Source of the DNA: a virus | Taxonomy: Duplodnaviria; Heunggongvirae; Uroviricota; Caudoviricetes | IMG/VR virus record: IMGVR_UViG_643348551_000004 | Length of the DNA: 44,935 nt | Strand: one strand, 5' to 3' | Part shown: positions 1 to 44,935 of the stretch, one piece after another | How the letters are laid out: every line of letters begins with the position of its first letter | Numbering within the stretch: position 1 is the first letter of the stretch | Program-made: the position numbers and the translations under genes | Notes under the pieces: model-generated | The model's input: only the letters and a program-made list of their open reading frames with translations | What the model was told of the DNA's origin: nothing | Database searches by the model: none

Positions 1-1164
1 TTACGCCTTCTTTATATCCTCCATAATTCCAGAGTGGGACATATTTGGGACATTATCACCAAAAATGTCGTCTATTTTCCTCGCATGCTCTGTCAAATGA
101 TTAGGCGCAAGGTGAGCATACCTACGAACCATTTCTATGGACTCCCATCCGCCCATTTCCTGAAGCACTGATAATGGGACGCCTGACTGAATCAGCCAGC
201 TTGCCCAGGTATGTCTGAGGTCATGGAAACGGAAATCTTCAATTCCTGCACGACGACAAGCTGATAGCCATGATGTCTTGCTGTCGATGCGCATCTTCCT
301 GACCGCAGGCGTTGATGTTCCATCTGCTCGCTTAGCCGCCTTGGTATGTACAAACACCCATTTGTGATGCTTGCCTATTTGATCACGCAACACTTTACAG
401 GCGGTATCGTTCAGCGCCACACCAATGGCGCGGTTTGATTTGCTCTCTTCTGGATTCACCCAGGCAACTCGTCGCTGCATGTCGATTTGTTGCCATTCCA
501 GATTTATGATGTTCGACTTTCTCAGACCAGTTGCCAGCGCAAACTTGACGACAGATTTCAGTGGTTCGGGGCACTCATCAATAAGGCGTTTTGCTTCCTC
601 CTTTTCCAGCCATCTGACTCGCTTGTTTCTGACCGCTGGTATCTTGATGACAGGCGCTTTTTCCAGCCACTTCCAGTCGCGTTCTGCAGCACGGAGAATG
701 GCCTTTATCATGGCAAGATGCTTTGCCTTTGTCTGAGTTGATACTGGCTTTGGTTCATAAACAGGCAGTTCTTTACCTTTCCTGATGGCGGCCTGAACTT
801 TCTGTTTCCATATTTCTTTCGTCTTTCTGTTATGCATTCTGCTTACAGCAGAGTAAATCTTTGCCTCCGAGATATCTTTAAGCCTTATACCCTCAAAATG
901 TTCAAGCCAGAACTCAATCCGGCTTTTATCTGAATCGAGAGATTTTTTATCAGCTTTTTCCTCAAGCCATCTTAGGCAGGCCTCTTCAAAAGTGACATCA
1001 GGTAAATCCCCTAGCTTTTCTACTCGCCAGAGTTCTGCTTTTCGCTTGTCGTGCAACTCCTGAGCTTGCCGCTTGTCCTTTGTGCCAAGAGATTCCTTAG
1101 TTCGTTTCCCGCCCGGGAGCGAATACGAGGCATACCATATTTCATTTCTGCGGAAGAGTGACAT
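1..1164 (-). CDS. int: Phage integrase, tyrosine recombinase family
   Basis: 387-aa ORF with C-terminal R..HxxR..Y catalytic signature (HDLRHTWAS...VRRYAHL); first gene of the prophage, adjacent to xis; recalled as similar to DLP12 IntD. Confidence 0.92.
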
Positions 1165-1906: not shown

Positions 1907-2274
1907 CTTCCATTAATCTCTGAATTGTTGGTTAATACGCTTGAGGGTGAATGCGAATAATAAAAAAGGAGCCTGTAGCTCCCTGATGATTTTGCTTTTC
2001 ATGTTCATCGCTCCTTAAAGATGCCGTTTAACATGCCGATCGCCAGGCTTAAATGAGTCGGTGTGAATCCCTCAGCGTTACCGTTTCGCGGTGCTTCTTC
2101 AGTACGCTACGGCAAATGTTATTGATGCTCCTGTCTGGTGACAGCCATCGGGCTTGTATTATGTATAAGTTCTGATAAAAGCCTCCGATATATTAAATTT
2201 AAATAACGAAATTCATCTTCTTGATAAGTTGTGATAGCATCATTAAAAGTTTCAGTTCGTTGAGCAGGGATTAC

Positions 2275-2853
2275 ATGGTAAATCAGCAACAGCAACAGAT
2301 TAACGAAAATCTAAAAATTGAGGCAATCCGTTGGTATCAGAAGCTGCAGGAGATTACTTATCTTGAAGCAGGACAACACATGCGGGCTTTAAATCAGCTC
2401 ATGTGGCAAATCCCTAGTTTCGTAATTGCTGTCAATGGTGGGTTGTGGTATGCAACAACACTGGCAAATGAAAGTTCCCTATGGATTATCTTTGCAGTGT
2501 TAGCATTGTTTGATTTCACAACAATGATTACACTTTATCGCTTAAGGTCTTTAATTGGTTCGAAAATAGCACTACAAAAAAACATTGAAGATCCTTCAAA
2601 AAACTATATTTTAAATGAAATTACTAGAGACGCTGGATTTAAATTGCCCTCTAGCTATGATAATAAGGAAACTGGTTACATAGTAGTGTCGTGCTGGGCA
2701 GTAATGCTTATTGTTTGCTTCTTTGTTAATATTGCTGGAGTATATCATCCAAACTTGTTTTCAAAAGACATTTCACATAATACATACAAAGCAACAATTA
2801 AAAATATTGAGTCAGGATTATTTATCGAAGCAAAATCAGGATTATCAAAGTGA
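2275..2853 (+). CDS. Small integral membrane protein, about 3 predicted TM helices
   Basis: ATG at 2275 preceded by AGGGA; hydrophobic segments IPSFVIAVNGGLWYATTL, LWIIFAVLALFDFTTMITLY, GYIVVSCWAVMLIVCFFVNIAGV; AT-rich; opposite strand to the flanking early operon; a TTG at 2221 is an alternative start. Confidence 0.5.
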   Translation: MVNQQQQQINENLKIEAIRWYQKLQEITYLEAGQHMRALNQLMWQIPSFVIAVNGGLWYATTLANESSLWIIFAVLALFDFTTMITLYRLRSLIGSKIALQKNIEDPSKNYILNEITRDAGFKLPSSYDNKETGYIVVSCWAVMLIVCFFVNIAGVYHPNLFSKDISHNTYKATIKNIESGLFIEAKSGLSK

Positions 2854-3452
2854 CTTCGTGGAAGTTTTATGACAATAATGCTGATCGCTTATTTGCCGAT
2901 TATATATCACTTGATTTTTACTCTATCTTTCAGGATGTTGAAGAGTTTATTTTACAATCTAAGGGTGTCTCTTTGGATGTCGGTTCAGGTTCCGGCCGTG
3001 ATGCTGCTGCGTTAGATGAATTAGGTTATAAAGTAATAGCTGTTGAACCAAGTGAAAAGATGCGAAATTTGGCATCTTCATATTATAAATCTAACCATAT
3101 TATATGGTTAGATGATTCATTGCCTTTTCTTCATAGTGTTAAAGCAATGAATCTAAAGTTCGACCTTATTTTAGTCAGTGCTGTATGGATGCATCTTTCA
3201 AAAAAAGAGCAAAAAATCTCACTAGAGACGCTAACTGATCTTTTAACATTGAATGGGAGAATGATAATTACATTGCGCTTAGGACCTCCCGAACCAGATA
3301 GAAACATTAACGTTGTTAATACTGAGGAACTTCTTGAGTTAGCGTCTCAGTTAGGTCTGAAAACATTGCGAGTTACGTCAATAAATAAAGATAGTTTTCA
3401 ACGTAACCAGATAACTTGGCAGAAAGTTGTATTATCAAAAAATAATGAGTAA
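2850..3452 (+). CDS. Class I SAM-dependent methyltransferase, small-molecule (TehB-like) type
   Basis: Motif I LDVGSGSGRDAAAL and post-I acidic residue; about 200 aa with no DNA-MTase DPPY/target-recognition features; GTG start overlaps the upstream stop (GTGA). Confidence 0.6.
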   Translation: MTSWKFYDNNADRLFADYISLDFYSIFQDVEEFILQSKGVSLDVGSGSGRDAAALDELGYKVIAVEPSEKMRNLASSYYKSNHIIWLDDSLPFLHSVKAMNLKFDLILVSAVWMHLSKKEQKISLETLTDLLTLNGRMIITLRLGPPEPDRNINVVNTEELLELASQLGLKTLRVTSINKDSFQRNQITWQKVVLSKNNE

Positions 3453-3463
3453 ATAACTTAGTA

Positions 3464-4708
3464 TTATTCGCACAGACCGTAGCGTGAAGAGCAAACCTCT
3501 ATATCGAGACTTGCTTTTACAAGATCGTAGACCTTGCCACCGCGCCCTGTTTTTGCCCACTCTACGACTTCATAAACACCCGGAGAATTAAGATCTCCAC
3601 GAGGACCATAAAATCCTGACCAGTCGATGTGTTGCACATCAGGTTTTAGCCCAAAAAGTTGAATATTTCGACCAAGTGGCAGATTGAACTGTTTCATCCA
3701 GCGTTGGCTTATCTCTCCTACGCTCATCCAGTGTACCCATCTACTAGCAAGGCGTACCTTCAACTCCCATTGTTTGTGCTTTTTGATGTGCTCTGGCCAG
3801 CGCGCAGCCGTCTCTGCAATTTCCTCTTTGTTGCATAGCACGCAATTCATGCAGCCAACACGAGACGCACCTTGCATATAAAGTGGATTTGGCTTAATTC
3901 CGAAATATTTGTGAACTGCGAATACGTCCTCAGCCGTCCATTTGTGGAGCGGCAGGAAGTTGTAGAGAAAATCGGCGTCGCGCATATCGCGGGAAAACCT
4001 CTCATATCCAGCGCGCTTAGAGGACTCATCCGCGCGAACACCAGACCATTGTACGATAACATCGCCAGCATCAAGGAGCGGCTTTATGGCTGCGTCGAAA
4101 GCTATCTGAATTTTCAGTTCGTCTGTACAGAATCGGTCGCGCAGCATAGGGAACTTGCCATGCAGAAGGGAGCAATCCAAAAAGCTATTACCGGATGGGT
4201 GCATAACGGAAAGCGCAGCATCAAGAGCAGTTTCGAACTCAATTCCCCAGCGTTCTGCTGTGCGCTTCCAGGCTTGCCCGAATTTGGTGTCAGAACGTGC
4301 GAGGGAAGGCATGACTATGCCACGGTATGCTCCCATGCGGATCATCTGTCGTTTAGACCAGTTTTTTTGCAGATAAATTCGTCGTTTGGCAAAATCTTCT
4401 TCAGTGTAAATCCGCTTCACAACCTGCACAGGGCTACAACCGATCTGCTCATGAATGCTCCTGGCGAATTCGACAGTTAGATTATGCTCATTATCCGTGT
4501 CTGCCATAACAGCATGTACCTGTTTGCCGAATAATGTGTGCGCCACTGCGAGTGTGGCAGTGCTGTCTTTTCCTGCTGAATAATTCACGATTATCTTATG
4601 ATCATTAGGGATGCGAAATTCATTTATATATCTGTTGTAGGACTCTTCTATTTCGCGAATTTTCTTGCTGATGTCTGTTGGGACAATAATTATTGCTGCC
4701 TCGTTCAT
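3464..4708 (-). CDS. PAPS reductase / PP-loop ATP pyrophosphatase family protein (DndC-like fold)
   Basis: 414-aa ORF with N-terminal PP-loop NYSAGKDS; GGGAGG RBS; start overlaps the stop of the upstream small ORF (ATGA). Confidence 0.7.
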   Translation of the reverse strand: MNEAAIIIVPTDISKKIREIEESYNRYINEFRIPNDHKIIVNYSAGKDSTATLAVAHTLFGKQVHAVMADTDNEHNLTVEFARSIHEQIGCSPVQVVKRIYTEEDFAKRRIYLQKNWSKRQMIRMGAYRGIVMPSLARSDTKFGQAWKRTAERWGIEFETALDAALSVMHPSGNSFLDCSLLHGKFPMLRDRFCTDELKIQIAFDAAIKPLLDAGDVIVQWSGVRADESSKRAGYERFSRDMRDADFLYNFLPLHKWTAEDVFAVHKYFGIKPNPLYMQGASRVGCMNCVLCNKEEIAETAARWPEHIKKHKQWELKVRLASRWVHWMSVGEISQRWMKQFNLPLGRNIQLFGLKPDVQHIDWSGFYGPRGDLNSPGVYEVVEWAKTGRGGKVYDLVKASLDIEVCSSRYGLCE

Positions 4709-9312: not shown

Positions 9313-9858
9313 ATGACTATGCAACCACTTACATACCAACAGACTAGCGGATTTAGCCCGACTGCGGTGATAAATCGTTCTCAAACAAAACAGGCGCCAG
9401 GCCACGAAAAAATCCGTGATGCCGTTCGCGCCTGGTCGGCTGCAGATAATCAGGATGTTGTTGCCGCACTCATTGTGAATGAGTATCGGGAGCAGGGCGG
9501 CGGCACCATCGATTTCCCTGATGATGTCAGCCGTGCACGCCAGAAGCTGTTCCGCTTCCTCGATAACAAATTCGATTCTGAAAAATACCGAAATAACGTG
9601 CGTGAACTGACCCCGGCAATTCTGGCGGTACTACCGCTGGAATATCGCGGCCACCTGGTTGAGCAGGATAGCTTCATGGCTCGGCTGGCTGAAATGGAAA
9701 AGGAACTCAGTGAGGCAAAACAGGCTGTCATTCTCAACGCACCACGCCACCAGAAACTGAAGGAAATTAGTGAAGGTATTGTGTCGATGTTTCGTGTGGA
9801 CCCAGATCTGGCTGGTCCATTGATGGCGATGGTTACTACCATGCTGGGGGCGATATGA
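9313..9858 (+). CDS. Regulatory protein in the cII position, possibly YdaT/CII-like
   Basis: 181 aa between cro and O; not lambda cII; a better-spaced start is ATG 9319; family assignment from recall only. Confidence 0.45.
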   Translation: MTMQPLTYQQTSGFSPTAVINRSQTKQAPGHEKIRDAVRAWSAADNQDVVAALIVNEYREQGGGTIDFPDDVSRARQKLFRFLDNKFDSEKYRNNVRELTPAILAVLPLEYRGHLVEQDSFMARLAEMEKELSEAKQAVILNAPRHQKLKEISEGIVSMFRVDPDLAGPLMAMVTTMLGAI

Positions 9859-9944: not shown

Positions 9945-10874
9945 ATGGCAAACACTGCTGAGATATTCAATTTTCCAGTGCCGGATGCGGCACAAAAGGA
10001 GCCGCGCGTGGCAGATCTCGATGATGGTTATACGCGCATTGCAAATGAGTTGCTGGAAGCTGTGATGCTGGCCGGATTAACACAGCACCAGCTTCTGGTC
10101 TTCCTAGCTGTCATGCGCAAAACATATGGCTTTAATAAAAAACTGGATTGGGTGAGCAACGAGCAACTGTCCGAATTGACCGGGATATTGCCGCACAAGT
10201 GTTCTGCTGCAAAAAGTGTTCTGGTAAAGCGTGGGATTTTGATTCAGAGCGGGCGGAATATCGGTATTAATAATGTGGTCAGTGAATGGTCAACATTACC
10301 CGAATCAGGTAAGAAAAATAAAGTTTACCTGAAAGAGGTAAATTTACCTGAATCAGGTAAGAAAAGTTTACCCAAATCAGGTAAAGGCGTTTACCCGAAT
10401 CAGGTAAACACAAAAGACAAACTAACAAAAGACAATATAAAACCTTTTTCGTCCGAGAATTCTGGCGAATCCTCTGACCAACCAGAAAACGATCTTCCTG
10501 TGGTGAAACCAGATGCTGCAATTCAGAGCGGCAGCAAGTGGGGGACAGCAGAAGACCTGACCGCCGCAGAGTGGATGTTTGACATGGTGAAGACCATCGC
10601 GCCATCAGCCAGAAAACCGAATTTTGCAGGGTGGGCTAACGATATCCGCCTGATGCGTGAACGTGACGGACGTAACCACCGCGACATGTGTGTGCTGTTC
10701 CGCTGGGCATGCCAGGACAACTTCTGGTCCGGTAACGTGCTAAGTCCGGCCAAACTCCGCGACAAGTGGACCCAACTCGAAATCAACCGTAACAAGCAAC
10801 AGGCAGGCGTGACAGCTAGCAAACCAAAACTCGACCTGACAAACACAGACTGGATTTACGGGGTGGATCTATGA
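9945..10874 (+). CDS. O: Replication initiator O, hybrid: non-lambda N-terminal/iteron domain, lambda-type C-terminal domain
   Basis: ATG at 9945 with GGGAGG RBS; C-terminal about 130 aa recalled as matching lambda O; iterons lie inside the gene. Confidence 0.85.
   Translation: MANTAEIFNFPVPDAAQKEPRVADLDDGYTRIANELLEAVMLAGLTQHQLLVFLAVMRKTYGFNKKLDWVSNEQLSELTGILPHKCSAAKSVLVKRGILIQSGRNIGINNVVSEWSTLPESGKKNKVYLKEVNLPESGKKSLPKSGKGVYPNQVNTKDKLTKDNIKPFSSENSGESSDQPENDLPVVKPDAAIQSGSKWGTAEDLTAAEWMFDMVKTIAPSARKPNFAGWANDIRLMRERDGRNHRDMCVLFRWACQDNFWSGNVLSPAKLRDKWTQLEINRNKQQAGVTASKPKLDLTNTDWIYGVDL
10296..10408. repeat. Replication origin iterons (five 18-19 bp inverted-repeat units) inside O
   Basis: TTACCCGAATCAGGTAAG-type units at about 10296, 10324, 10343, 10366, 10390, followed by an A-rich tract (about 10410-10450). 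Confidence 0.7.
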
Positions 10875-11572: not shown

Positions 11573-11871
11573 CGGGCAAAGAGGCAATTATTCATTACCT
11601 GGGGACGCATAAGAGCTTCTGTGCACAGGACGTTGCCGCGGTAACAGGCGCAACCGTAACCAGCATAAATCAGGCTGCGGCTAAAATGGCGCGGGCAGGA
11701 ATCCTGGTCGTTGATGGTAAGGTCTGGCGAACGGTGTATTACCGGTTCGCTACCAGAGAAGAACGGGAAGGAAAGGTGAGCACGAATCTGATTTTTAAGG
11801 AGTGTCGCCAGAGTGCCGCGATGAAACGCGTATTGAGGGTATATAAAAGAACATCAATGGGTACACAATGA
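11569..11871 (+). CDS. ren: Ren (Rex-exclusion resistance) protein
   Basis: MTGKEAIIHYLGTH... recalled as lambda Ren; overlaps the P stop. Confidence 0.85.
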   Translation: MTGKEAIIHYLGTHKSFCAQDVAAVTGATVTSINQAAAKMARAGILVVDGKVWRTVYYRFATREEREGKVSTNLIFKECRQSAAMKRVLRVYKRTSMGTQ

Positions 11872-11938
11872 TGAAACAGGTGAGTTGATTTCAAACTGTA
11901 GTACAATTCTCTCCAGTTTGAACAGGAAAGAATATGCT

Positions 11939-12271
11939 ATGAACCCTTATATTTATCTTGGTGGTGCAATACTTGCAGAGGTCATTGGTACAACCTTAAT
12001 GAAGTTTTCAGAAGGTTTTACACGGTTATGGCCATCTGTTGGTACAATTATCTGTTATTGTGCATCATTCTGGTTATTAGCTCAGACGCTGGCTTATATT
12101 CCTACAGGGATTGCTTATGCTATCTGGTCAGGAGTCGGTATTGTCCTGATTAGCTTACTGTCATGGGGATTTTTCGGCCAACGGCTGGACCTGCCAGCCA
12201 TTATAGGCATGATGTTGATTTGTGCCGGTGTGTTGGTTATTAATTTATTGTCACGAAGCACACCACATTAA
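11939..12271 (+). CDS. emrE: SMR-family multidrug efflux protein EmrE
   Basis: 110 aa, MNPYIYLGGAILAEVIGTTLMKFSEGF... recalled as E. coli EmrE (a DLP12 prophage gene). Confidence 0.9.
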   Translation: MNPYIYLGGAILAEVIGTTLMKFSEGFTRLWPSVGTIICYCASFWLLAQTLAYIPTGIAYAIWSGVGIVLISLLSWGFFGQRLDLPAIIGMMLICAGVLVINLLSRSTPH

Positions 12272-12302
12272 AAATAATTTGTTTCTAAACGACTAAAATA
12301 TG

Positions 12303-12345
12303 GAGGCTCTTATATTTATATGAGCCTCGTTTTATGCTTTTTGTT
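12303..12345 (+). terminator. Rho-independent terminator after emrE
   Basis: Hairpin GAGGCTC-loop-GAGCCTC followed by GTTTTATGCTTTTT. Confidence 0.5.
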
Positions 12346-12527
12346 AATGTCTTTATTTTTTTATGTATTCTTTTGTGCTTTCAAGATTATGGCGTAAGAA
12401 AATTGCAATACGATTATTGTTGTATATTCAAGATAATGTGACCTTAATTGTCTTTTTAAATAAAAATTAAACAAAAATTATATCTCACCACTAAGGTTTA
12501 TAAAAGCATACGTTAGCAGGTGTCACC

Positions 12528-14054
12528 ATGAAAAAAGCCATAGCATATATGCGATTTTCATCACCAGGTCAGATGTCTGGCGACTCATTAAACCGACAGA
12601 GAAGACTTATTGCTGAATGGTTAAAGGTAAATAGTGATTATTATCTTGATACCATAACATATGAAGATTTAGGATTAAGTGCATTCAAAGGAAAGCATGC
12701 ACAATCAGGAGCTTTTTCGGAATTTTTAGATGCTATAGAGCATGGTTATATATTGCCAGGAACTACATTGTTAGTTGAAAGTCTGGACAGACTTTCAAGA
12801 GAAAAAGTCGGTGAAGCGATTGAGCGTCTGAAATTGATTTTGAATCACGGTATTGATGTTATAACTCTTTGCGATAATACAGTCTATAATATTGACTCTT
12901 TGAATGATCCATATTCATTAATAAAAGCCATACTTATAGCACAAAGGGCAAATGAAGAAAGCGAGATAAAGTCAAGTCGGGTTAAATTATCATGGAAGAA
13001 AAAACGGCAGGATGCACTGGAGTCAGGCACGATTATGACGGCGTCTTGTCCGAGATGGCTCTCCTTAGATGACAAAAGAACGGCTTTTGTTCCAGACCCC
13101 GACAGGGTGAAAACTATTGAGCTAATTTTTAAACTCAGGATGGAAAGGCGCTCATTGAATGCAATAGCCAAGTATTTAAATGATCATGCTGTAAAGAATT
13201 TCTCAGGAAAAGAAAGTGCATGGGGACCTTCTGTAATTGAAAAATTATTAGCGAATAAAGCTCTGATAGGTATATGCGTACCTTCATATCGTGCAAGAGG
13301 TAAAGGAATAAGTGAAATCGCTGGCTATTATCCCAGAGTCATATCAGATGATTTGTTTTACGCTGTGCAGGAAATTCGGTTGGCACCTTTTGGTATTAGC
13401 AATAGTAGCAAAAACCCTATGTTGATAAATCTACTTCGAACAGTTATGAAGTGCGAGGCTTGTGGTAATACCATGATTGTTCATGCGGTATCTGGAAGTT
13501 TGCATGGCTATTATGTTTGTCCGATGAGAAGACTGCATCGATGTGACAGGCCATCAATAAAGAGAGATTTGGTTGATTATAATATCATTAATGAGTTGCT
13601 TTTTAATTGTAGTAAAATCCAACCAGTTGAAAACAAGAAAGATGCTAATGAAACTTTAGAGTTGAAAATTATTGAGCTCCAGATGAAAATTAATAATTTA
13701 ATTGCTGCATTATCTGTTGCGCCTGAAGTTACCGCTATAGCAGAAAAAATCAGAGTATTAGATAAGGAATTACGAAGGGCTTCTGTATCATTAAAAACTT
13801 TGAAGAGTAAAGCGGTGAGCTCACTTGGTGATTTTCATGCTATTGACTTAACCAGTAAAAATGGGCGAGAGCTATGTCGTACACTTGCCTATAAAACATT
13901 CGAAAAAATCATAATCAATACAGATAATAAAACCTGTGATATCTATTTTATGAATGGCATTGTTTTTAAACACTATCCTTTAATGAAAACAATATCCGCC
14001 CAGCAGGCGATAAGTACTCTCAAATATATGGTTGATGGTGAGGTTTATTTTTGA
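12528..14054 (+). CDS. ybcK: Large serine recombinase (resolvase-type N-terminal domain, recombinase domain, Cys-rich zinc ribbon)
   Basis: 508 aa; N-terminal AYMRFSSPGQ catalytic-serine motif; Cys cluster CEACGN...CPMRRLHRC; AT-rich; recalled as DLP12 YbcK. Confidence 0.85.
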   Translation: MKKAIAYMRFSSPGQMSGDSLNRQRRLIAEWLKVNSDYYLDTITYEDLGLSAFKGKHAQSGAFSEFLDAIEHGYILPGTTLLVESLDRLSREKVGEAIERLKLILNHGIDVITLCDNTVYNIDSLNDPYSLIKAILIAQRANEESEIKSSRVKLSWKKKRQDALESGTIMTASCPRWLSLDDKRTAFVPDPDRVKTIELIFKLRMERRSLNAIAKYLNDHAVKNFSGKESAWGPSVIEKLLANKALIGICVPSYRARGKGISEIAGYYPRVISDDLFYAVQEIRLAPFGISNSSKNPMLINLLRTVMKCEACGNTMIVHAVSGSLHGYYVCPMRRLHRCDRPSIKRDLVDYNIINELLFNCSKIQPVENKKDANETLELKIIELQMKINNLIAALSVAPEVTAIAEKIRVLDKELRRASVSLKTLKSKAVSSLGDFHAIDLTSKNGRELCRTLAYKTFEKIIINTDNKTCDIYFMNGIVFKHYPLMKTISAQQAISTLKYMVDGEVYF

Positions 14055-14165
14055 GTAATAATCACTTTTTCAACCGTGCTATAGTAAGAAAGTTAGGTAA
14101 GTACAATAAAATTATCTATCCTGAACGAAGCGTCCTGAGCTATGGTTTTACTATAGGGACTGCCA

Positions 14166-14495
14166 ATGGATGCTGGCGTTCTCGTTCTAGCAGTTCAACA
14201 ATCCCCAATCACAAAACAATTCACTGATAACGAACTTTGCACACTCGCCTGGTTATGGCGAGCAGGGAATGTGATGTTAATTGCCTACCAGAACGTTACT
14301 CATCTTCTTCAGGATGCGGAGCATGGTGAAGCTGGTCACTTCACTTCCATCGAGCAAGAATATCCCCAGATACTCAACAGAGCGCGAGCAATCCTCGTCC
14401 GAGAAACGGCACATGTAAAACTTCAGCCGTGGCAGGATGATAAGTGGAGTCGAGTATTGCCACATTTGCGTCAGAATGTTATTAAACAACGTTAG
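14166..14495 (+). CDS. Hypothetical protein (109 aa)
   Basis: ATG with AGGGA RBS; nin-region position; no recognisable motif. Confidence 0.5.
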   Translation: MDAGVLVLAVQQSPITKQFTDNELCTLAWLWRAGNVMLIAYQNVTHLLQDAEHGEAGHFTSIEQEYPQILNRARAILVRETAHVKLQPWQDDKWSRVLPHLRQNVIKQR

Positions 14496-14554: not shown

Positions 14555-14806
14555 ATGATGTCCTTCACCAAATGTAAATTAATGCACAGCCATAAAACTA
14601 GCGTAAATGCAGCGCTCTTGGACGATACGAAATTAGTTGTAGAGAGGGATCTCCATTTTCTTCGTGAGTTATACATATCAAGCCCAGAAGAATTTGTCGG
14701 ACATTGGGTTTATGCAAATGAGCCAATATTTCATGAACATCCACTGTCTGTTGGCCTTTCTGGTATTGTCTATCACAAGGTTATTGATGAAATTGAAAAA
14801 TCATAA
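14555..14806 (+). CDS. Hypothetical protein (83 aa)
   Basis: Strong AAGGAG RBS 8 nt upstream of the ATG; no recognisable motif. Confidence 0.55.
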   Translation: MMSFTKCKLMHSHKTSVNAALLDDTKLVVERDLHFLRELYISSPEEFVGHWVYANEPIFHEHPLSVGLSGIVYHKVIDEIEKS

Positions 14807-17039: not shown

Positions 17040-18137
17040 TTAGAACTGGTAAACCAGACCTACAGCAACGATGTCATCAGTGCTTACACCGAGTGCTTTA
17101 GTGAAGTCATTTTTGTCAAGCAGGTTGATTTTGTAATCAACGAAAGTAGACATATTTTTGTTGAAGTAATAGGTTGCACCTACATCAACATATTTGACTA
17201 AGTCCTGATCGCCCCATACTCCAAGATCTTTACCTTTAGATTGCAGGTAAGCAACGGACGGACGCAGACCGAAATCGAACTGATATTGTGCAACAGCTTC
17301 GAAGTTTTGGGCTTTATTAGCAACGAAGTGATCAGCAAATACAGTCATATTCTGGGTTTCAGAATAGGTAGTGGCCAGGTAAATGTTGTTAGCGTCATAT
17401 TTCAGACCTGCGGCCCAAACTTCTGCATTTTTACCGGAAGCAAATACTTCAGGAAGAACTTTCCCTGCATTAACTTGAGTGTCGGTACGATCAGATTTCG
17501 CATAAGTTGCACCGATACCGAATCCTTCGTATTCATAGGTAGCAGAGAAACCGAAGCCATCACCGTTACCTTCAGTGTAGTTATCGAAATCGCTACGATC
17601 GTTTTTGCCTTGGTACTGAGCAGCAAAGTTCAGACCATCAACCAGACCAAAGAAGTCGTTGTTACGATAGGTTGCAACACCAGTGGTGCGACCAGTCATG
17701 AACACATCTGTTTGGGTCCAGGTATCGCCACCGAATTCTGGCAGAACGTCAGTCCACGCACCGATGTCGTATGCTACACCGTAGTTACGGCCGTAATCGA
17801 TTGAGCCGTAGTCACCGAATTTCAGGCCTGCAAATGCAAGACGGGTTTTGTCTTTGGAGGAACCTTGAGATTCAGCGCGGTTGCCTTTGAATTCATATTC
17901 CCACTGACCGAAACCAGTCAGTTGATCGTTGATTTGGGTTTCACCTTTGAAGCCAAGACGGGCATAAGTAGTATCACCATCATCTGCATCATTAGAGGAG
18001 AAGTAGTGCTTGGCATTAACTTTCCCGTACAGATCCAGCTTGTTACTGTCTTTATTATAAATTTCAGCTGCCTGAGCAGACATCGCCATCAGTACTGATG
18101 CAGCTACAGCAGAAATTGCCACTGTTAATTTTTTCAT
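17040..18137 (-). CDS. nmpC: Outer-membrane general porin, OmpC/OmpF family
   Basis: 365 aa with signal peptide [23 protein letters not shown] and C-terminal aromatic residue (..VYQF); uninterrupted ORF between Q and the lysis genes. Confidence 0.92.
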
Positions 18138-40705: not shown

Positions 40706-43672
40706 GTGAATATGGCAGTAAAGATTTCAGGTGTACTGAAAGACGGCACAGGAAAACCGGTACAGAACTGCACAATCCAGCTGAAAGCAAAACGTAACAG
40801 CACCACGGTGGTGGTGAACACGCTGGCCTCAGAAAATCCGGATGAAGCCGGGCGTTACAGCATGGACGTTGAGTACGGTCAGTACAGCGTTATTCTGTTG
40901 GTGGAAGGATTCCCGCCGTCACATGCCGGGACCATCACCGTGTATGAAGATTCCCGACCCGGTACGCTGAATGATTTTCTCGGTGCCATGACGGAGGATG
41001 ATGCCCGTCCGGAGGCTCTGCGCCGTTTTGAACTGATGGTGGAAGAGGTGACGCGTAACGCGTCCGCGGTGGCACAGAACACGGCAGCCGCGAAGAAGTC
41101 AGCCAGTGATGCCGGCACATCTGCCCGTGAGGCGGCAACCCATGCGACTGATGCTGCAGGCTCAGCGCGTGCAGCCAGCACGTCAGCCGGACAGGCCGCG
41201 ACTTCGGCTCAGGAGGCGTCTTCCAGCGCAGGAACGGCATCAACAAAGGCCACTGAAGCATCAAAAAGTGCTGCCGCTGCAGAGTCCTCAAAAAGCGCGG
41301 CGGCCACCAGTGCCGGTGCGGCGAAAACGTCAGAAACGAATGCTGCAGCGTCACAAAAATCAGCAGCCACTTCAGCATCCACCGCGACCACGAAAGCGTC
41401 AGAAGCTGCCACCTCAGCCCGGGATGCGTCGGCTTCAAAAGAGGCAGCGAAATCATCAGAAACGAACGCATCATCAAGCGCCAGTAGTGCCGCTTCCTCG
41501 GCAACGGCGGCAGGCAATTCCGCGAAGGCGGCAAAGACGTCTGAGACAAACGCCAGGTCTTCTGAAACGGCAGCGGAACAGAGCGCCTCAGCTGCGGCAG
41601 ACTCTGAGACAGCAGCTGCATCATCGGCCCGTGAGGCGTCCATTAAGGCAGAGGAGGCAGCAGTCAGTGCCACCGCCGCCGGAAAATCGGCAGAAAGCGC
41701 CGCATCATCCGCTTCAACAGCCACAACGAAGGCTGGCGAAGCCACTGAACAGGCCAGCGCAGCAGCGAGGTCTGCTTCCGCAGCGAAGACATCCGAAACG
41801 AACGCGAAAGCGTCGGAAACCAGCGCAGAATCCTCAAAAACGGCTGCCGCATCGTCCGCCAGTTCGGCGGCGTCATCGGCATCATCTGCGTCTGCTTCAA
41901 AAGATGAGGCGACCAGACAGGCGTCAGCAGCGAGGGGCAGCGCCACGACGGCATCCACGAAGGCGACAGAGGCTGCTGGCAGTGCGGCAGCGGCAGCACA
42001 GAGCAAAAGTACGGCGGAATCCGCGGCAACGCGCGCCGAGACAGCAGCAAAACGGGCAGAGGATATTGCATCCGCCGTGGCGCTTGAGGATGCGAGCACG
42101 ACGAAAAAGGGGATAGTACAGCTCAGCAGTGCGACCAACAGCACTTCCGAGTCACAGGCGGCAACGCCAAAAGCCGTTAAGGCCGCGTATGACCTGGCTA
42201 ACGGGAAATACACCGCACAGGATGCAACGACAGCACAGAAAGGGATAGTTCAGCTCAGCAGTGCGACTAACAGCACTTCCGAGTCACAGGCGGCAACGCC
42301 AAAAGCCGTTAAGGCCGCGTATGACCTGGCTAACGGGAAATACACCGCACAGGACGCTACGACAGCACAAAAAGGAATTGTCCAGCTCAGTAGTGCAACC
42401 AACAGCACATCTGAAACGCTTGCTGCGACACCGAAAGCAGTGAAAGCAGCTAATGACAATGCGAATGGTCGGGTACCTTCTGCCCGTAAGGTGAATGGTA
42501 AGGCGCTTTCAGCGGATATAACACTGACGCCGAAAGATATTGGTACGCTTAACTCAACAACAATGTCATTCAGCGGTGGTGCTGGTTGGTTCAAATTAGC
42601 AACGGTAACCATGCCACAGGCGAGTTCTGTTGTTTCAATTACGTTGATTGGTGGCGCTGGATTTAACGTGGGGTCACCTCAACAGGCAGGTATATCTGAA
42701 CTTGTTTTACGTGCAGGTAATGGTAATCCGAAGGGGATTACTGGTGCTTTATGGCAGCGCACATCGACAGGGTTTACAAATTTTGCCTGGGTCAATACAT
42801 CTGGTGATACTTACGATATTTACGTTGCAATCGGAAATTATGCGACTGGTGTAAATATTCAATGGGATTATACCAGTAATGCCAGCGTGACGATTCATAC
42901 GTCACCAGCATATTCTGCTAATAAGCCGGAAGGGTTAACGGACGGTACAGTTTATTCACTCTATACGCCATCAGAGCAGTTTTATCCGCCTGGCGCACCA
43001 ATCCCGTGGCCATCAGATACCGTTCCGTCTGGCTATGCCCTGATGCAGGGGCAGACTTTTGACAAATCTGCATACCCGAAACTTGCAGCCGCTTATCCGT
43101 CAGGCGTGATCCCTGATATGCGTGGCTGGACGATTAAGGGCAAACCTGCCAGTGGTCGGGCCGTATTGTCTCAGGAACAGGACGGCATTAAATCGCATAC
43201 CCACAGCGCCAGCGCATCCAGTACGGATTTGGGGACGAAAACCACATCGTCGTTTGATTACGGCACTAAATCCACGAATAACACTGGTGCGCATACCCAT
43301 AGTTTAAGTGGCAGCACGAATGCAGCTGGTAATCACAGCCATAGAGATGGCCGTCGATTTAACCCCAGTGTTTTTAAAGATACTTATCAATATGGTTATA
43401 CAAGCTCAGGTCAAAATACCTGGGGTGTACAAGGCTCAGTAGGTATGTCTACGGGGTGGTTAGCGAATACCAGTACAGATGGTAATCATAGCCATTCACT
43501 GTCCGGCACAGCAGCATCTGCAGGTGCACACGCGCATACTGTCGGTATTGGTGCTCATACGCACTCCGTTGCGATTGGTTCACATGGACACACCATCACC
43601 GTTAACGCTGCTGGTAACGCGGAAAACACCGTCAAAAACATCGCATTTAACTATATTGTGAGGCTTGCATAA
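40706..43672 (+). CDS. stf: Side tail fibre protein Stf
   Basis: 988 aa; long Ala/Ser/Thr-rich region, three 44-aa tandem repeats, C-terminal His-rich HxH repeats typical of tail-fibre tips. Confidence 0.9.
42104..42499 (+). repeat. Three tandem 132-bp repeats inside stf
   Basis: Two near-identical and one diverged copy of a 132-bp unit encoding [44 protein letters not shown]. Confidence 0.75.
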
Positions 43673-44344: not shown

Positions 44345-44935
44345 TTATATGTCAGGTGTCTGAAGTTTTGCTTTGGCTCTTAAAATGGTTTGCCGCGAGG
44401 TTTTGAATTCCCGGGCAATGGCACTTATACTTACACCTGACTTAATTCGTTCGAATGCCACCTGTTTCTGTTCTTCATTTAACACAGGTGGTCGACCAAA
44501 ACGTTTCCCTGCGCCGCGGGCTCTTACTATCCCGGAATGAGTGCGTTCAAGTAAAAGGTCTCGTTCAAATTCAGCGACTGCTGAAATTACGTGCATCATC
44601 ATTTTTCCTGTTGGACTGGTCAGGTCAATGCCCCCCAATGCTAAGCAATGCACTCTGATACCTGTTTCGGTCAGTTGTTCCACTGTTTTCCTGATATCCA
44701 TTGCATTACAACCAAGGCGATCCAGTTTTGTCACAATCAATTGATCACCACATTTCAGGCGAGCAAGCAACCGGTTAAAACCAGGACGCTCACTGGTTGC
44801 TGCTGAGCCGCTAATGTGTTCTTCGATTATTTGCTGAGGTTTGATTTTAAAACCTGCACTTTCGATTTCCCGGCGTTGATTTTCGATGGTCTGATCCAGC
44901 GTTGATATCCGACAGTAAGCAAAAATTCGAGACAT
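44345..44935 (-). CDS. pin: Serine DNA invertase, Pin/Hin/Gin family
   Basis: 196 aa; N-terminal catalytic-serine motif (YCRISTLDQ); C-terminal HTH; convergent with tfa as in Rac/Qin prophages; start codon is at the window edge. Confidence 0.85.

Follow-up and report, generated by a model that had tools for sequence, protein, structure and literature searches.

The AT-rich block downstream of ren in the prophage analyzed here is probably made up of two accessory modules in a ren-to-ninB cargo hotspot, the second of which encodes YbcK, a recombinase that appears to be kept by selection in a capacity other than that of an integrase. The identity and intactness of the genes and the purifying selection were observed directly, as were the modular presence and absence and the cargo-type positions across genera.

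The analyzed stretch of 44,935 nucleotides (hereafter, the window) corresponds to a lambdoid prophage of Escherichia coli that is of the DLP12 type and full length; replication, head, and tail genes are all present, and the gene order around emrE and ybcK is that of K-12 DLP12. An earlier note on this DNA had described an SMR efflux gene followed by a large serine recombinase in an AT-rich block inside the replication/nin region, and had counted the recombinase as a third one beside a tyrosine integrase and a separate Pin invertase. All of these features were located at the positions given (Table 1), with the block between replication and nin genes and YbcK additional to both other enzymes. 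The GC content was 0.31-0.38 over positions 12000-14000, a drop that extended across emrE, the terminator, and the recombinase gene, compared with approximately 0.5 in O, P, ren, and ybcN; the value for ybcK itself was 0.36, compared with approximately 0.5 in its flanks.

Table 1. Features of the emrE-ybcK region and further recombinase genes of the window.
Feature	Position	Strand	Basis or remark
Tyrosine integrase, IntD type, the prophage's own	1-1164	-	Context
Left mosaic junction and emrE upstream region	11845-11938	+	Comparison with lambdoid phages without the block
emrE, SMR multidrug efflux transporter, 110 aa	11939-12271	+	Pfam, NCBIfam, K-12 identity
AT-rich ybcK leader	12272-12527	+	97% identical to K-12
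Minimal ybcK module	12279-14093	+	Begins 7 nt beyond the emrE stop, ends ~39 nt past the ybcK stop
Intrinsic-terminator-like hairpin (stem 12303-12328) with T-rich tail	12303-12343	+	Folding, inverted repeat
Small ORF ylcJ	12319-12469	+	Frameshifted in the window
ybcK, large serine recombinase, 508 aa	12528-14054	+	Pfam, alignment, model, PHROG
Tail downstream of ybcK, where prophage lineages diverge	14055-14178	+	Locus comparison
Rha/Ant-type antirepressor gene, C-terminal fragment (P22AR_C)	14166-14495	+	Pfam, locus comparison
Pin-type small serine invertase, 196 aa, Resolvase and HTH_7	44345-44935	-	Adjoins tail-fiber assembly gene

The product of emrE matched Pfam Multi_Drug_Res (E = 2e-35) and the NCBIfam EmrE model (240.6 bits, above the cut-off of 226), and its length and the membrane-embedded Glu14, read in the translation, are those of the SMR transporters, a family of ~110-residue proteins with four transmembrane helices. 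It was identical to K-12 EmrE (b0543) at 109 of 110 residues (99%), the sole difference being the conservative substitution I99V. Upstream of emrE, the match to lambdoid phages without the block stopped at 11835-11844, within the 3′ end of ren, and a palindrome with 12-nt arms was found at 11890-11922.

YbcK belongs to the large serine recombinases (serine integrase family) and is intact. Its Pfam matches were Resolvase (residues 4-161; E = 5e-19), Recombinase (PF07508; residues 191-284), and Zn_ribbon_recom (PF13408; residues 302-357), all above their cut-offs, and a 508-codon frame in DNA of 36% GC with three domain matches in this order is not a chance open reading frame. The catalytic domain carrying Ser11 is followed by a long αE helix, the recombinase domain, a Cys4 zinc ribbon, a coiled-coil arm, and a C-terminal β domain. 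Across 17 relatives of 41-62% identity, R9, S11, Q15, D87, R88, R91, and E143-E146 were invariant, as were the zinc-ribbon cysteines C309, C312, C331, and C339. The AlphaFold model (pLDDT 79) contained the long αE helix and a helix-turn-helix coiled coil at residues 372-428, with predicted arm helices at 372-397 and 402-428 separated by a short turn; in alignment, this region corresponded to the A118/LI integrase coiled coil. Foldseek searches with the model returned full-length serine integrases as the best matches (E = 1e-18 to 1e-11), and YbcK matched PHROG 95 'integrase' (E = 2e-120) and, partially, PHROG 125. When the family alignment was used as a profile against PDB sequences, no match was obtained at E ≤ 0.001. 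Thus, the catalytic domain, the recombinase and Cys4 zinc-ribbon domains, and the coiled-coil arm of large serine recombinases were all found; the catalytic-serine domain and the zinc ribbon had been described in the earlier note. YbcK is presumably catalytically active, and a target for it presumably exists.

The gene is under strong purifying selection and is not a remnant. The dN/dS ratio was 0.06-0.09 at a dS of 0.12-0.18, the full 508-codon frame was present in 79 of 80 sampled copies from viral contigs, with 31 distinct protein variants, and at least 80% of the gene was found in 1397 complete genomes. Furthermore, 12 deposited lambdoid phage genomes contained ybcK. The earlier note had offered a degenerate gene lacking the catalytic serine as the finding that would overturn its reading; instead, the frame and Ser11 were intact and constrained. 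The location inside a prophage, the AT-richness, and the poor expression through Rho-dependent termination would each suit an inactive leftover of old phage-phage recombination, but that origin is highly improbable given this selection, the nearly universal full-length frame, the intact catalytic and zinc-binding residues, the occurrence in deposited phage genomes, and the relatives found in the same position in other genera.

The purifying selection could nevertheless reflect a role other than recombination. In BL21(DE3), sabinene tolerance rose by 128% when YbcK was overexpressed, and it fell in a knock-out (PMC7181518); in addition, ybcK has been kept in the cryptic K-12 prophage. Both facts are consistent with co-option of the protein for a function without strand exchange, such as a DNA-binding or regulatory role with effects on envelope or stress physiology. 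However, terpene tolerance is the only reported phenotype of YbcK (PMC7181518), it was obtained under strong overexpression, and it came with no mechanism. Moreover, the invariance of all catalytic residues at 41-62% identity would be unexpected if catalysis were dispensable, and we regard such a co-option as quite unlikely.

Next, we compared presence and absence of the block across genomes. The presence/absence polymorphism for which the earlier note had proposed a comparison was evident, but emrE and ybcK did not behave as one unit: emrE was found in 3692 genomes and ybcK in 1423, and approximately 2300 complete genomes carried emrE without ybcK. In Nissle-type loci, with the order emrE-ybcL-ybcM, 4 bp stood where K-12 has 2083 bp; the K-12 counterpart of the ybcK module, which reaches 309 nt past the stop codon, was absent from these loci. 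The bounds of the ybcK module in E. coli were -249 and at or beyond +39. These data demonstrated that emrE and ybcK are separable and not one cassette; they are probably two stacked accessory modules (morons) that were acquired separately. For ybcK, the marks of a moron were presence or absence among related phages, deviant GC content, and a hairpin together with a reported Rho terminator.

The DNA 3′ of ybcK was varied, with at least 11 arrangements and junctions at +39 to +486 relative to the stop codon, including +39 (K-12 type), +66 (O157 type), and +125, the join to the rha fragment in the window. Because the downstream junctions were scattered over this range and did not fall at one site, integron-like cassette capture at ybcK was ruled out. 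The Rha fragment in the window is the remainder of cargo displaced by the emrE-ybcK segment, and in other lambdoid phages the ren-to-ninB slot was occupied by PD-lambda-1, Rha, a methyltransferase, or an acyltransferase. We also considered an anti-phage defense system, and no PADLOC match was obtained for YbcK, for EmrE, or for either of the two ORFs that follow ybcK.

The compactness of the module raises another explanation, in which ybcK, together with ~220-250 bp of upstream and 40-60 bp of downstream DNA, forms a minimal mobile element moved by its own recombinase among the accessory regions of prophages, islands, and plasmids. A ybcK-type module in Pantoea, 94% identical between two unrelated contexts, spanned only -222 to +56 around the gene, the E. 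coli module is similarly bounded and cleanly absent from Nissle-type loci, and the family was found in many contexts and in both orientations. On the other hand, the module ends were not mutual inverted repeats, the right-hand junctions in E. coli fell at many offsets, and illegitimate recombination of an ordinary promoter-gene-terminator moron would account for the same bounds. Comparison of the filled (K-12) and empty (Nissle) sites gave no readable crossover dinucleotide because the two alleles differ by 8% and by small indels. We therefore consider self-mobility of this module distinctly unlikely.

In the reading that we prefer, that of a cargo recombinase, YbcK is neither the prophage integrase nor the tail-fiber invertase; those functions fall to the tyrosine integrase encoded at the left end and to Pin, encoded at the right. 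In prophages that encode tyrosine integrases of their own, ybcK had an internal position between ren and ybcN, and the order ren-emrE-ybcK-ybcN was found both in prophages adjoining argU (IntD) and in those adjoining icd, which use a different integrase. A working second integration module, using a nearby attP to enter an alternative site when that of the tyrosine integrase is occupied or absent, would accord with the complete serine-integrase architecture of YbcK, including the coiled coil that governs attP × attB pairing, and with its PHROG annotation. However, no evident dyad-symmetric site adjoined ybcK, and all 80 sampled E. coli copies, like the annotated genomes examined, kept the order ren-emrE-ybcK-ybcN. 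None was permuted at ybcK, the signature expected of YbcK-mediated integration, and natural variation thus contained no footprint of rearrangement by YbcK.

The relatives of YbcK in other Enterobacterales, whose surroundings were mapped within 10 kb of flank, bear on the same question. The interval from the replication genes to Q contained a relative in Atlantibacter and in a Pantoea dispersa prophage that also encodes its own tyrosine integrase, and other relatives followed tail-fiber genes in Atlantibacter, Yersinia, Erwinia, and Ewingella. For those beside such genes, a role in inversion of tail-fiber or PilV segments was rejected, as the gene maps contained no oppositely oriented second copy. 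Relatives were also found as the terminal gene of a prophage or island adjoining host DNA in Atlantibacter, Erwinia, Ewingella, and a Pantoea island, and a Pantoea dispersa island (L018, L019) had no other integrase among the upstream ORFs examined. The terminal position of several relatives is compatible with a primary integrase as well, and cargo status may therefore not extend to every member of the family. The Erwinia prophage with a relative, however, lies upstream of lepA, presumably the location in which the tyrosine-integrase phage Gifsy-1 keeps cargo at the same end. In E. coli, a distant blastn search with the Citrobacter gene for family members in other contexts returned ybcK alone. 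Taken together, we judge it rather unlikely that YbcK serves its prophage as a second integrase.

We then searched the window for recombination sites. The earlier note had proposed att-like inverted repeats flanking 11900-14100, and none beyond chance was detected. The best flanking pair (12474-12490 and 14036-14052; 14 of 17 positions complementary) had one arm in coding sequence, and that arm lacked conservation among relatives; a perfect 10-bp pair at the K-12 locus was about at chance level for such AT-rich DNA, and a repeat scan of the whole window gave nothing tied to the emrE-ybcK block. A MAFFT alignment suggested a conserved non-coding element 3′ of the gene in E. coli and Atlantibacter; this candidate was dropped, local alignment against shuffled sequences having yielded one weak match only, in a different register. 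Neither the repeats nor the comparison of filled and empty loci revealed a recognizable recombination site for YbcK in the window. The literature found reported no recombination activity, binding site, or product of YbcK.

YbcK was also compared with characterized systems. It shares with the phage serine integrases PhiC31, Bxb1, A118/LI, and TP901-1 the domain order, the predicted fold, the catalytic serine motif, the Cys4 zinc ribbon, and the coiled-coil arm, although identity was only 14-19%. Unlike PhiC31-type integrases, whose genes lie at the prophage edge beside an att site, YbcK is encoded elsewhere in a prophage that has its own tyrosine integrase. YbcK is not known to have att sites or a directionality factor. 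XisF of Anabaena and SpoIVCA/CisA of B. subtilis have the same three-domain large serine recombinase build; the match of YbcK to the NCBIfam XisF model was weak (47.8 bits vs the cut-off of 375), which excludes it from that family, and no interrupted host gene was evident. YbcK was earlier paired with CisA on domain content (PMC6637259). The invertases Pin, Gin, Cin, and Hin have a resolvase-type catalytic domain in common with YbcK, as the partial PHROG 125 match indicates, whereas YbcK is 508 residues long and has the recombinase and zinc-ribbon domains in place of a C-terminal HTH_7; moreover, no segment of a neighboring gene was seen as an inverted duplicate. Finally, YbcK, like the large serine recombinases TnpX (Tn4451) and TndX (Tn5397), could in principle move its own coding DNA, and its module is compact, but no excised circle, related ends, or common target sequence could be demonstrated for it.

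Upstream of ybcK, the hairpin had a centroid energy of -13.6 kcal/mol (z = -2.9 vs shuffled sequences), with a T-run after the stem. The earlier note had assigned this terminator to emrE; the hairpin itself is present, but the assignment needs qualification, as the hairpin lies inside the segment that is absent where ybcK is absent. The frameshift in ylcJ results from a run of 7 T in the window compared with 6 T in K-12. In K-12, a Rho/NusG-dependent terminator has been reported in the untranslated leader of ybcK, where it holds ybcK mRNA low (PMC4150792). The gene points in the same direction as the early-right operon and sits behind both the intrinsic hairpin and the reported Rho-dependent terminator. 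Judged from this orientation and the two upstream terminators, ybcK is probably silent in the lysogen and would be read through only after induction, under antiterminated transcription running from the replication genes to Q. By analogy with the family mechanism, YbcK dimers would most likely use their recombinase and zinc-ribbon domains to engage two short sites, and the coiled-coil arms would decide which sites pair. Ser11 would cut both strands in concert, leaving 2-nt overhangs, and the subunits would rotate by 180° before the ends are rejoined.

The emrE-ybcK pair is real and is not a new object: the annotation of E. coli K-12 has included both genes (b0543 and b0544) for decades, and little is therefore added as discovery. 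K-12 YbcK (UniProt P77698), described as a 'putative recombinase' of the cryptic DLP12, was 98% identical to that of the window over 508 residues, with 11 amino-acid differences. The two loci share ren, emrE, and ylcJ upstream and the same nin genes further downstream, and they differ immediately 3′ of ybcK, where K-12 has ybcL-ybcM and the window has the Rha-fragment ORF and an 83-aa ORF; the prophage of the window is full length, whereas K-12 DLP12 is cryptic. YbcK is listed among 16 site-specific recombinases of K-12 (PMC5426353), of which it is, by domain content, the large serine type. What the present analysis adds is the strong purifying selection on ybcK, its presence in deposited phage genomes, its separability from emrE, and the repeated location of its relatives in phage cargo positions of prophages with their own integrase, and together these four additions make a direct search for the YbcK target worthwhile. 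It is conceivable, albeit as a minority prospect, that the YbcK family represents an unrecognized class of accessory large serine recombinases carried in cargo slots of lambdoid phages and further mobile elements beside the element's own integrase, each member being either a single-gene element that moves itself or an enzyme produced after induction that rearranges a specific external target. In that case, the external target would lie in the host chromosome or in a competing element, and among the large serine recombinases of E. coli K-12, YbcK alone would have a natural target that could be discovered. An att pair, if found, would also make YbcK available to genome engineering as a new serine integrase native to E. 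coli.

The sequence of the window is that of a full-length, DLP12-type lambdoid prophage of E. coli. Hundreds of complete genomes of this species matched the 3.4 kb surrounding its emrE–ybcK block, with identities reaching 99.9%, and in them the genes are annotated as ren, emrE, ylcJ, and ybcK. The recombinase was 98% identical to YbcK of K-12 MG1655 (b0544; "putative recombinase YbcK"), and the transporter shared 109 of 110 residues with K-12 EmrE (b0543); the pair is therefore an already annotated feature. Open reading frames, domain matches, and the hairpin stem agreed exactly with the coordinates that the earlier note had given for the block (11939–14054), and the two further recombinases that it listed, a tyrosine integrase and a Pin-type invertase, were present. 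The block was AT-rich as described, with a GC content of 0.31–0.38 over 12000–14000 versus 0.48–0.53 in the neighboring O, P, ren, ybcN, and rusA. That account was correct and careful; the locus itself was already known.

Positions of features in the window, with supporting observations
Feature	Position	Strand	Observation
Tyrosine integrase	1-1164	-	
ORF, 210 aa	2221-2853	+	No Pfam match
S-adenosylmethionine methyltransferase-domain protein	2850-3452	+	
PAPS-reductase-domain protein	3464-4708	-	
cII-position gene, upstream of O	9313-9858		YdaT_toxin domain, E 5e-30
Repeats within O	10296-10412		22-bp direct repeat x3 (TTACCYGAATCAGGTAAGAAAA) and overlapping palindrome
emrE, SMR transporter, 110 aa	11939-12271		Pfam Multi_Drug_Res E 2e-35; NCBIfam EmrE 240.6 bits (cut-off 226)
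Hairpin stem (T-run follows)	12303-12328		Only 1/200 shuffles folds as well or better
ylcJ, small ORF	12319-12469		Frameshift from extra T (7 T vs 6 T in K-12); start codon overlaps 3' arm of the hairpin
Recombinase (ybcK), 508 aa	12528-14054		Resolvase, Recombinase, Zn_ribbon_recom domains, in that order
Rha antirepressor gene, C-terminal fragment	14166-14495		
ORF, 83 aa, 3' of Rha fragment	14555-14806		PHROG 9613 (unknown function); no Pfam/NCBIfam family match
NmpC-type porin, 365 aa, between Q and lysis genes	17040-18137	-	Intact; K-12 copy split by IS5
Repeats in long tail-fibre gene	42087-42482		132-bp tandem repeat x3; identity to copy 1: 92% and 64%
Pin-type invertase, 196 aa	44345-44935	-	

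The gene group at 2221–4708, near the integrase end, is a possible cargo module for modifying DNA or nucleotides, and the repeats within O are presumably replication-origin iterons.

YbcK is intact, is of the serine-integrase type, and has been maintained by selection; it is presumably catalytically active. When it was aligned with 16 relatives (41–62% identity), no variation was seen at R9, S11, Q15, D87, R88, R91, or C309/C312/C331/C339, nor over E143–E146 in the long helix. The AlphaFold model (mean pLDDT 79) comprised a catalytic domain, helix 128–166, a recombinase domain, a zinc ribbon, a two-helix arm (372–397 and 402–428), and a C-terminal beta domain; its best Foldseek matches were full-length att-DNA-bound serine integrases, including PhiC31, Bxb1, and Listeria LI/A118, and YbcK matched PHROG 95 "integrase" at E 2e-120. 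Comparison of the window allele with those of K-12, O157, and phage Perceval gave dS of 0.12–0.18 and dN/dS of 0.06–0.09. All 508 codons were kept in 79 of 80 copies on viral contigs (31 distinct protein sequences), and the gene was carried by 1423 of 5426 complete genomes. Among lambdoid phages with deposited genomes, 12 had it, Perceval, 4A7, and Turner being three of them. The degenerate remnant that would have refuted the earlier note was not what we found, and a dead gene is the least probable of the alternatives, highly improbable in itself. Beside the invariant catalytic residues, a co-opted, non-catalytic role is also improbable.

YbcK is neither the integrase of this prophage nor part of one cassette with emrE. 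The order ren–emrE–ybcK–(variable)–ybcN occurred in every E. coli copy examined, both in argU-adjacent prophages with IntD and in an icd-adjacent O157 prophage with a different tyrosine integrase and an excisionase. A check for presence/absence polymorphism, which the earlier note had proposed, showed that the two genes vary separately: emrE, found in 3692 genomes, was far commoner than ybcK (1423). Where the 92%-identical allele is present (Nissle 1917 and some 2300 further genomes), emrE leads directly to ybcL–ybcM, 2083 bp of K-12 (from 7 nt past the emrE stop to 309 nt past the ybcK stop) being replaced by 4 bp in Nissle. The hairpin that the earlier note took for the terminator of emrE falls inside this absent segment. 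The Nissle locus (L091 4342–8444) is a much-reduced prophage remnant, emrE–ybcL–ybcM–porin, between fliE and yedK and without ybcK; its emrE differs from the window allele by a dS of 0.40 but only one amino acid.

Similarity to phages lacking both genes ended at 11835–11844, in the end of ren, and restarted at 14179, inside the Rha antirepressor gene; those phages carry different cargo in the interval, such as the defence gene PD-lambda-1, a methyltransferase, or an acyltransferase. At least 11 arrangements were found 3' of ybcK, with junctions at +39–51, +66, +255–285, +326, +417–428, and +486 relative to its stop. Such scatter is ordinary phage mosaicism rather than recombination at one site. 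The att-like inverted repeats suggested earlier were not recovered, neither inverted nor direct repeats exceeding chance in the flanks of the gene or block. That ybcK is a self-moving single-gene element is improbable, to the same degree as the co-opted role. Separately, the E. coli prophages L118 and L139 (IMG/VR) carry 1.4–2.4 kb insertions, probably insertion sequences, 51 bp past the ybcK stop and within the Rha fragment, respectively; K-12 and comparison locus L101 have another between ren and emrE.

Relatives of YbcK across Enterobacterales (505–522 aa, 41–62% identity) recurred in both classical lambdoid cargo regions. Between the replication genes and Q, the order in Atlantibacter RC6 was O, P, C5 methylase, recombinase, DUF1367, NinG, Q; the Pantoea dispersa locus has a tyrosine integrase at its host junction, and the gene is reversed in Pantoea alvi. 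At the distal prophage end, beyond the tail-fibre assembly gene, were relatives in Atlantibacter (540 bp from the ssrA 3' end), Erwinia (upstream of lepA), Ewingella, and Yersinia. Others were plasmid-borne, belonged to a small Pantoea island, or sat in a Citrobacter koseri transfer-gene region. Two Pantoea copies were 94% identical, but only in the gene and its immediate surroundings (−222 to +56); their flanks were unrelated. The distribution of the relatives is consistent with an accessory gene moving as a compact module. Some prophage-terminal relatives may be true integrases; a second integration route for YbcK itself is unlikely, albeit the foremost of the alternatives. In Candidatus Pantoea alvi (L028 5683–12859), a complete P gene stands on one side of the relative and, on the other, a second P copy that is truncated at its N terminus and by eye roughly three-quarters identical to the first. 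Beside the relative are four clustered genes, for an HTH protein, a thymidylate kinase look-alike (judged by eye), and two unknowns, which may form a defence system.

Our literature search found no reported substrate for YbcK. It is one of 16 listed K-12 site-specific recombinases (PMC5426353) and has three domains in common with B. subtilis CisA (PMC6637259); its untranslated leader has served as a Rho/NusG-dependent terminator that keeps mRNA low (PMC4150792), and cells overexpressing YbcK tolerated sabinene better, for which no mechanism was given (PMC7181518). By analogy with the established chemistry of the family, YbcK dimers would bind two short sites, their coiled coils would gate synapsis, and Ser11 would cleave, followed by subunit rotation and rejoining of the ends. 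Judging by its orientation and the two terminators upstream, ybcK is probably silent while the prophage is dormant, and transcription from the early-right operon would reach it by read-through once induction has occurred. YbcK serves neither the integration of this prophage nor its tail-fibre switch; ybcK is carried as prophage cargo. The locus matters only for YbcK as a recombinase without a substrate and for the new comparative evidence, which presents ybcK as a conserved phage cargo gene, not debris.
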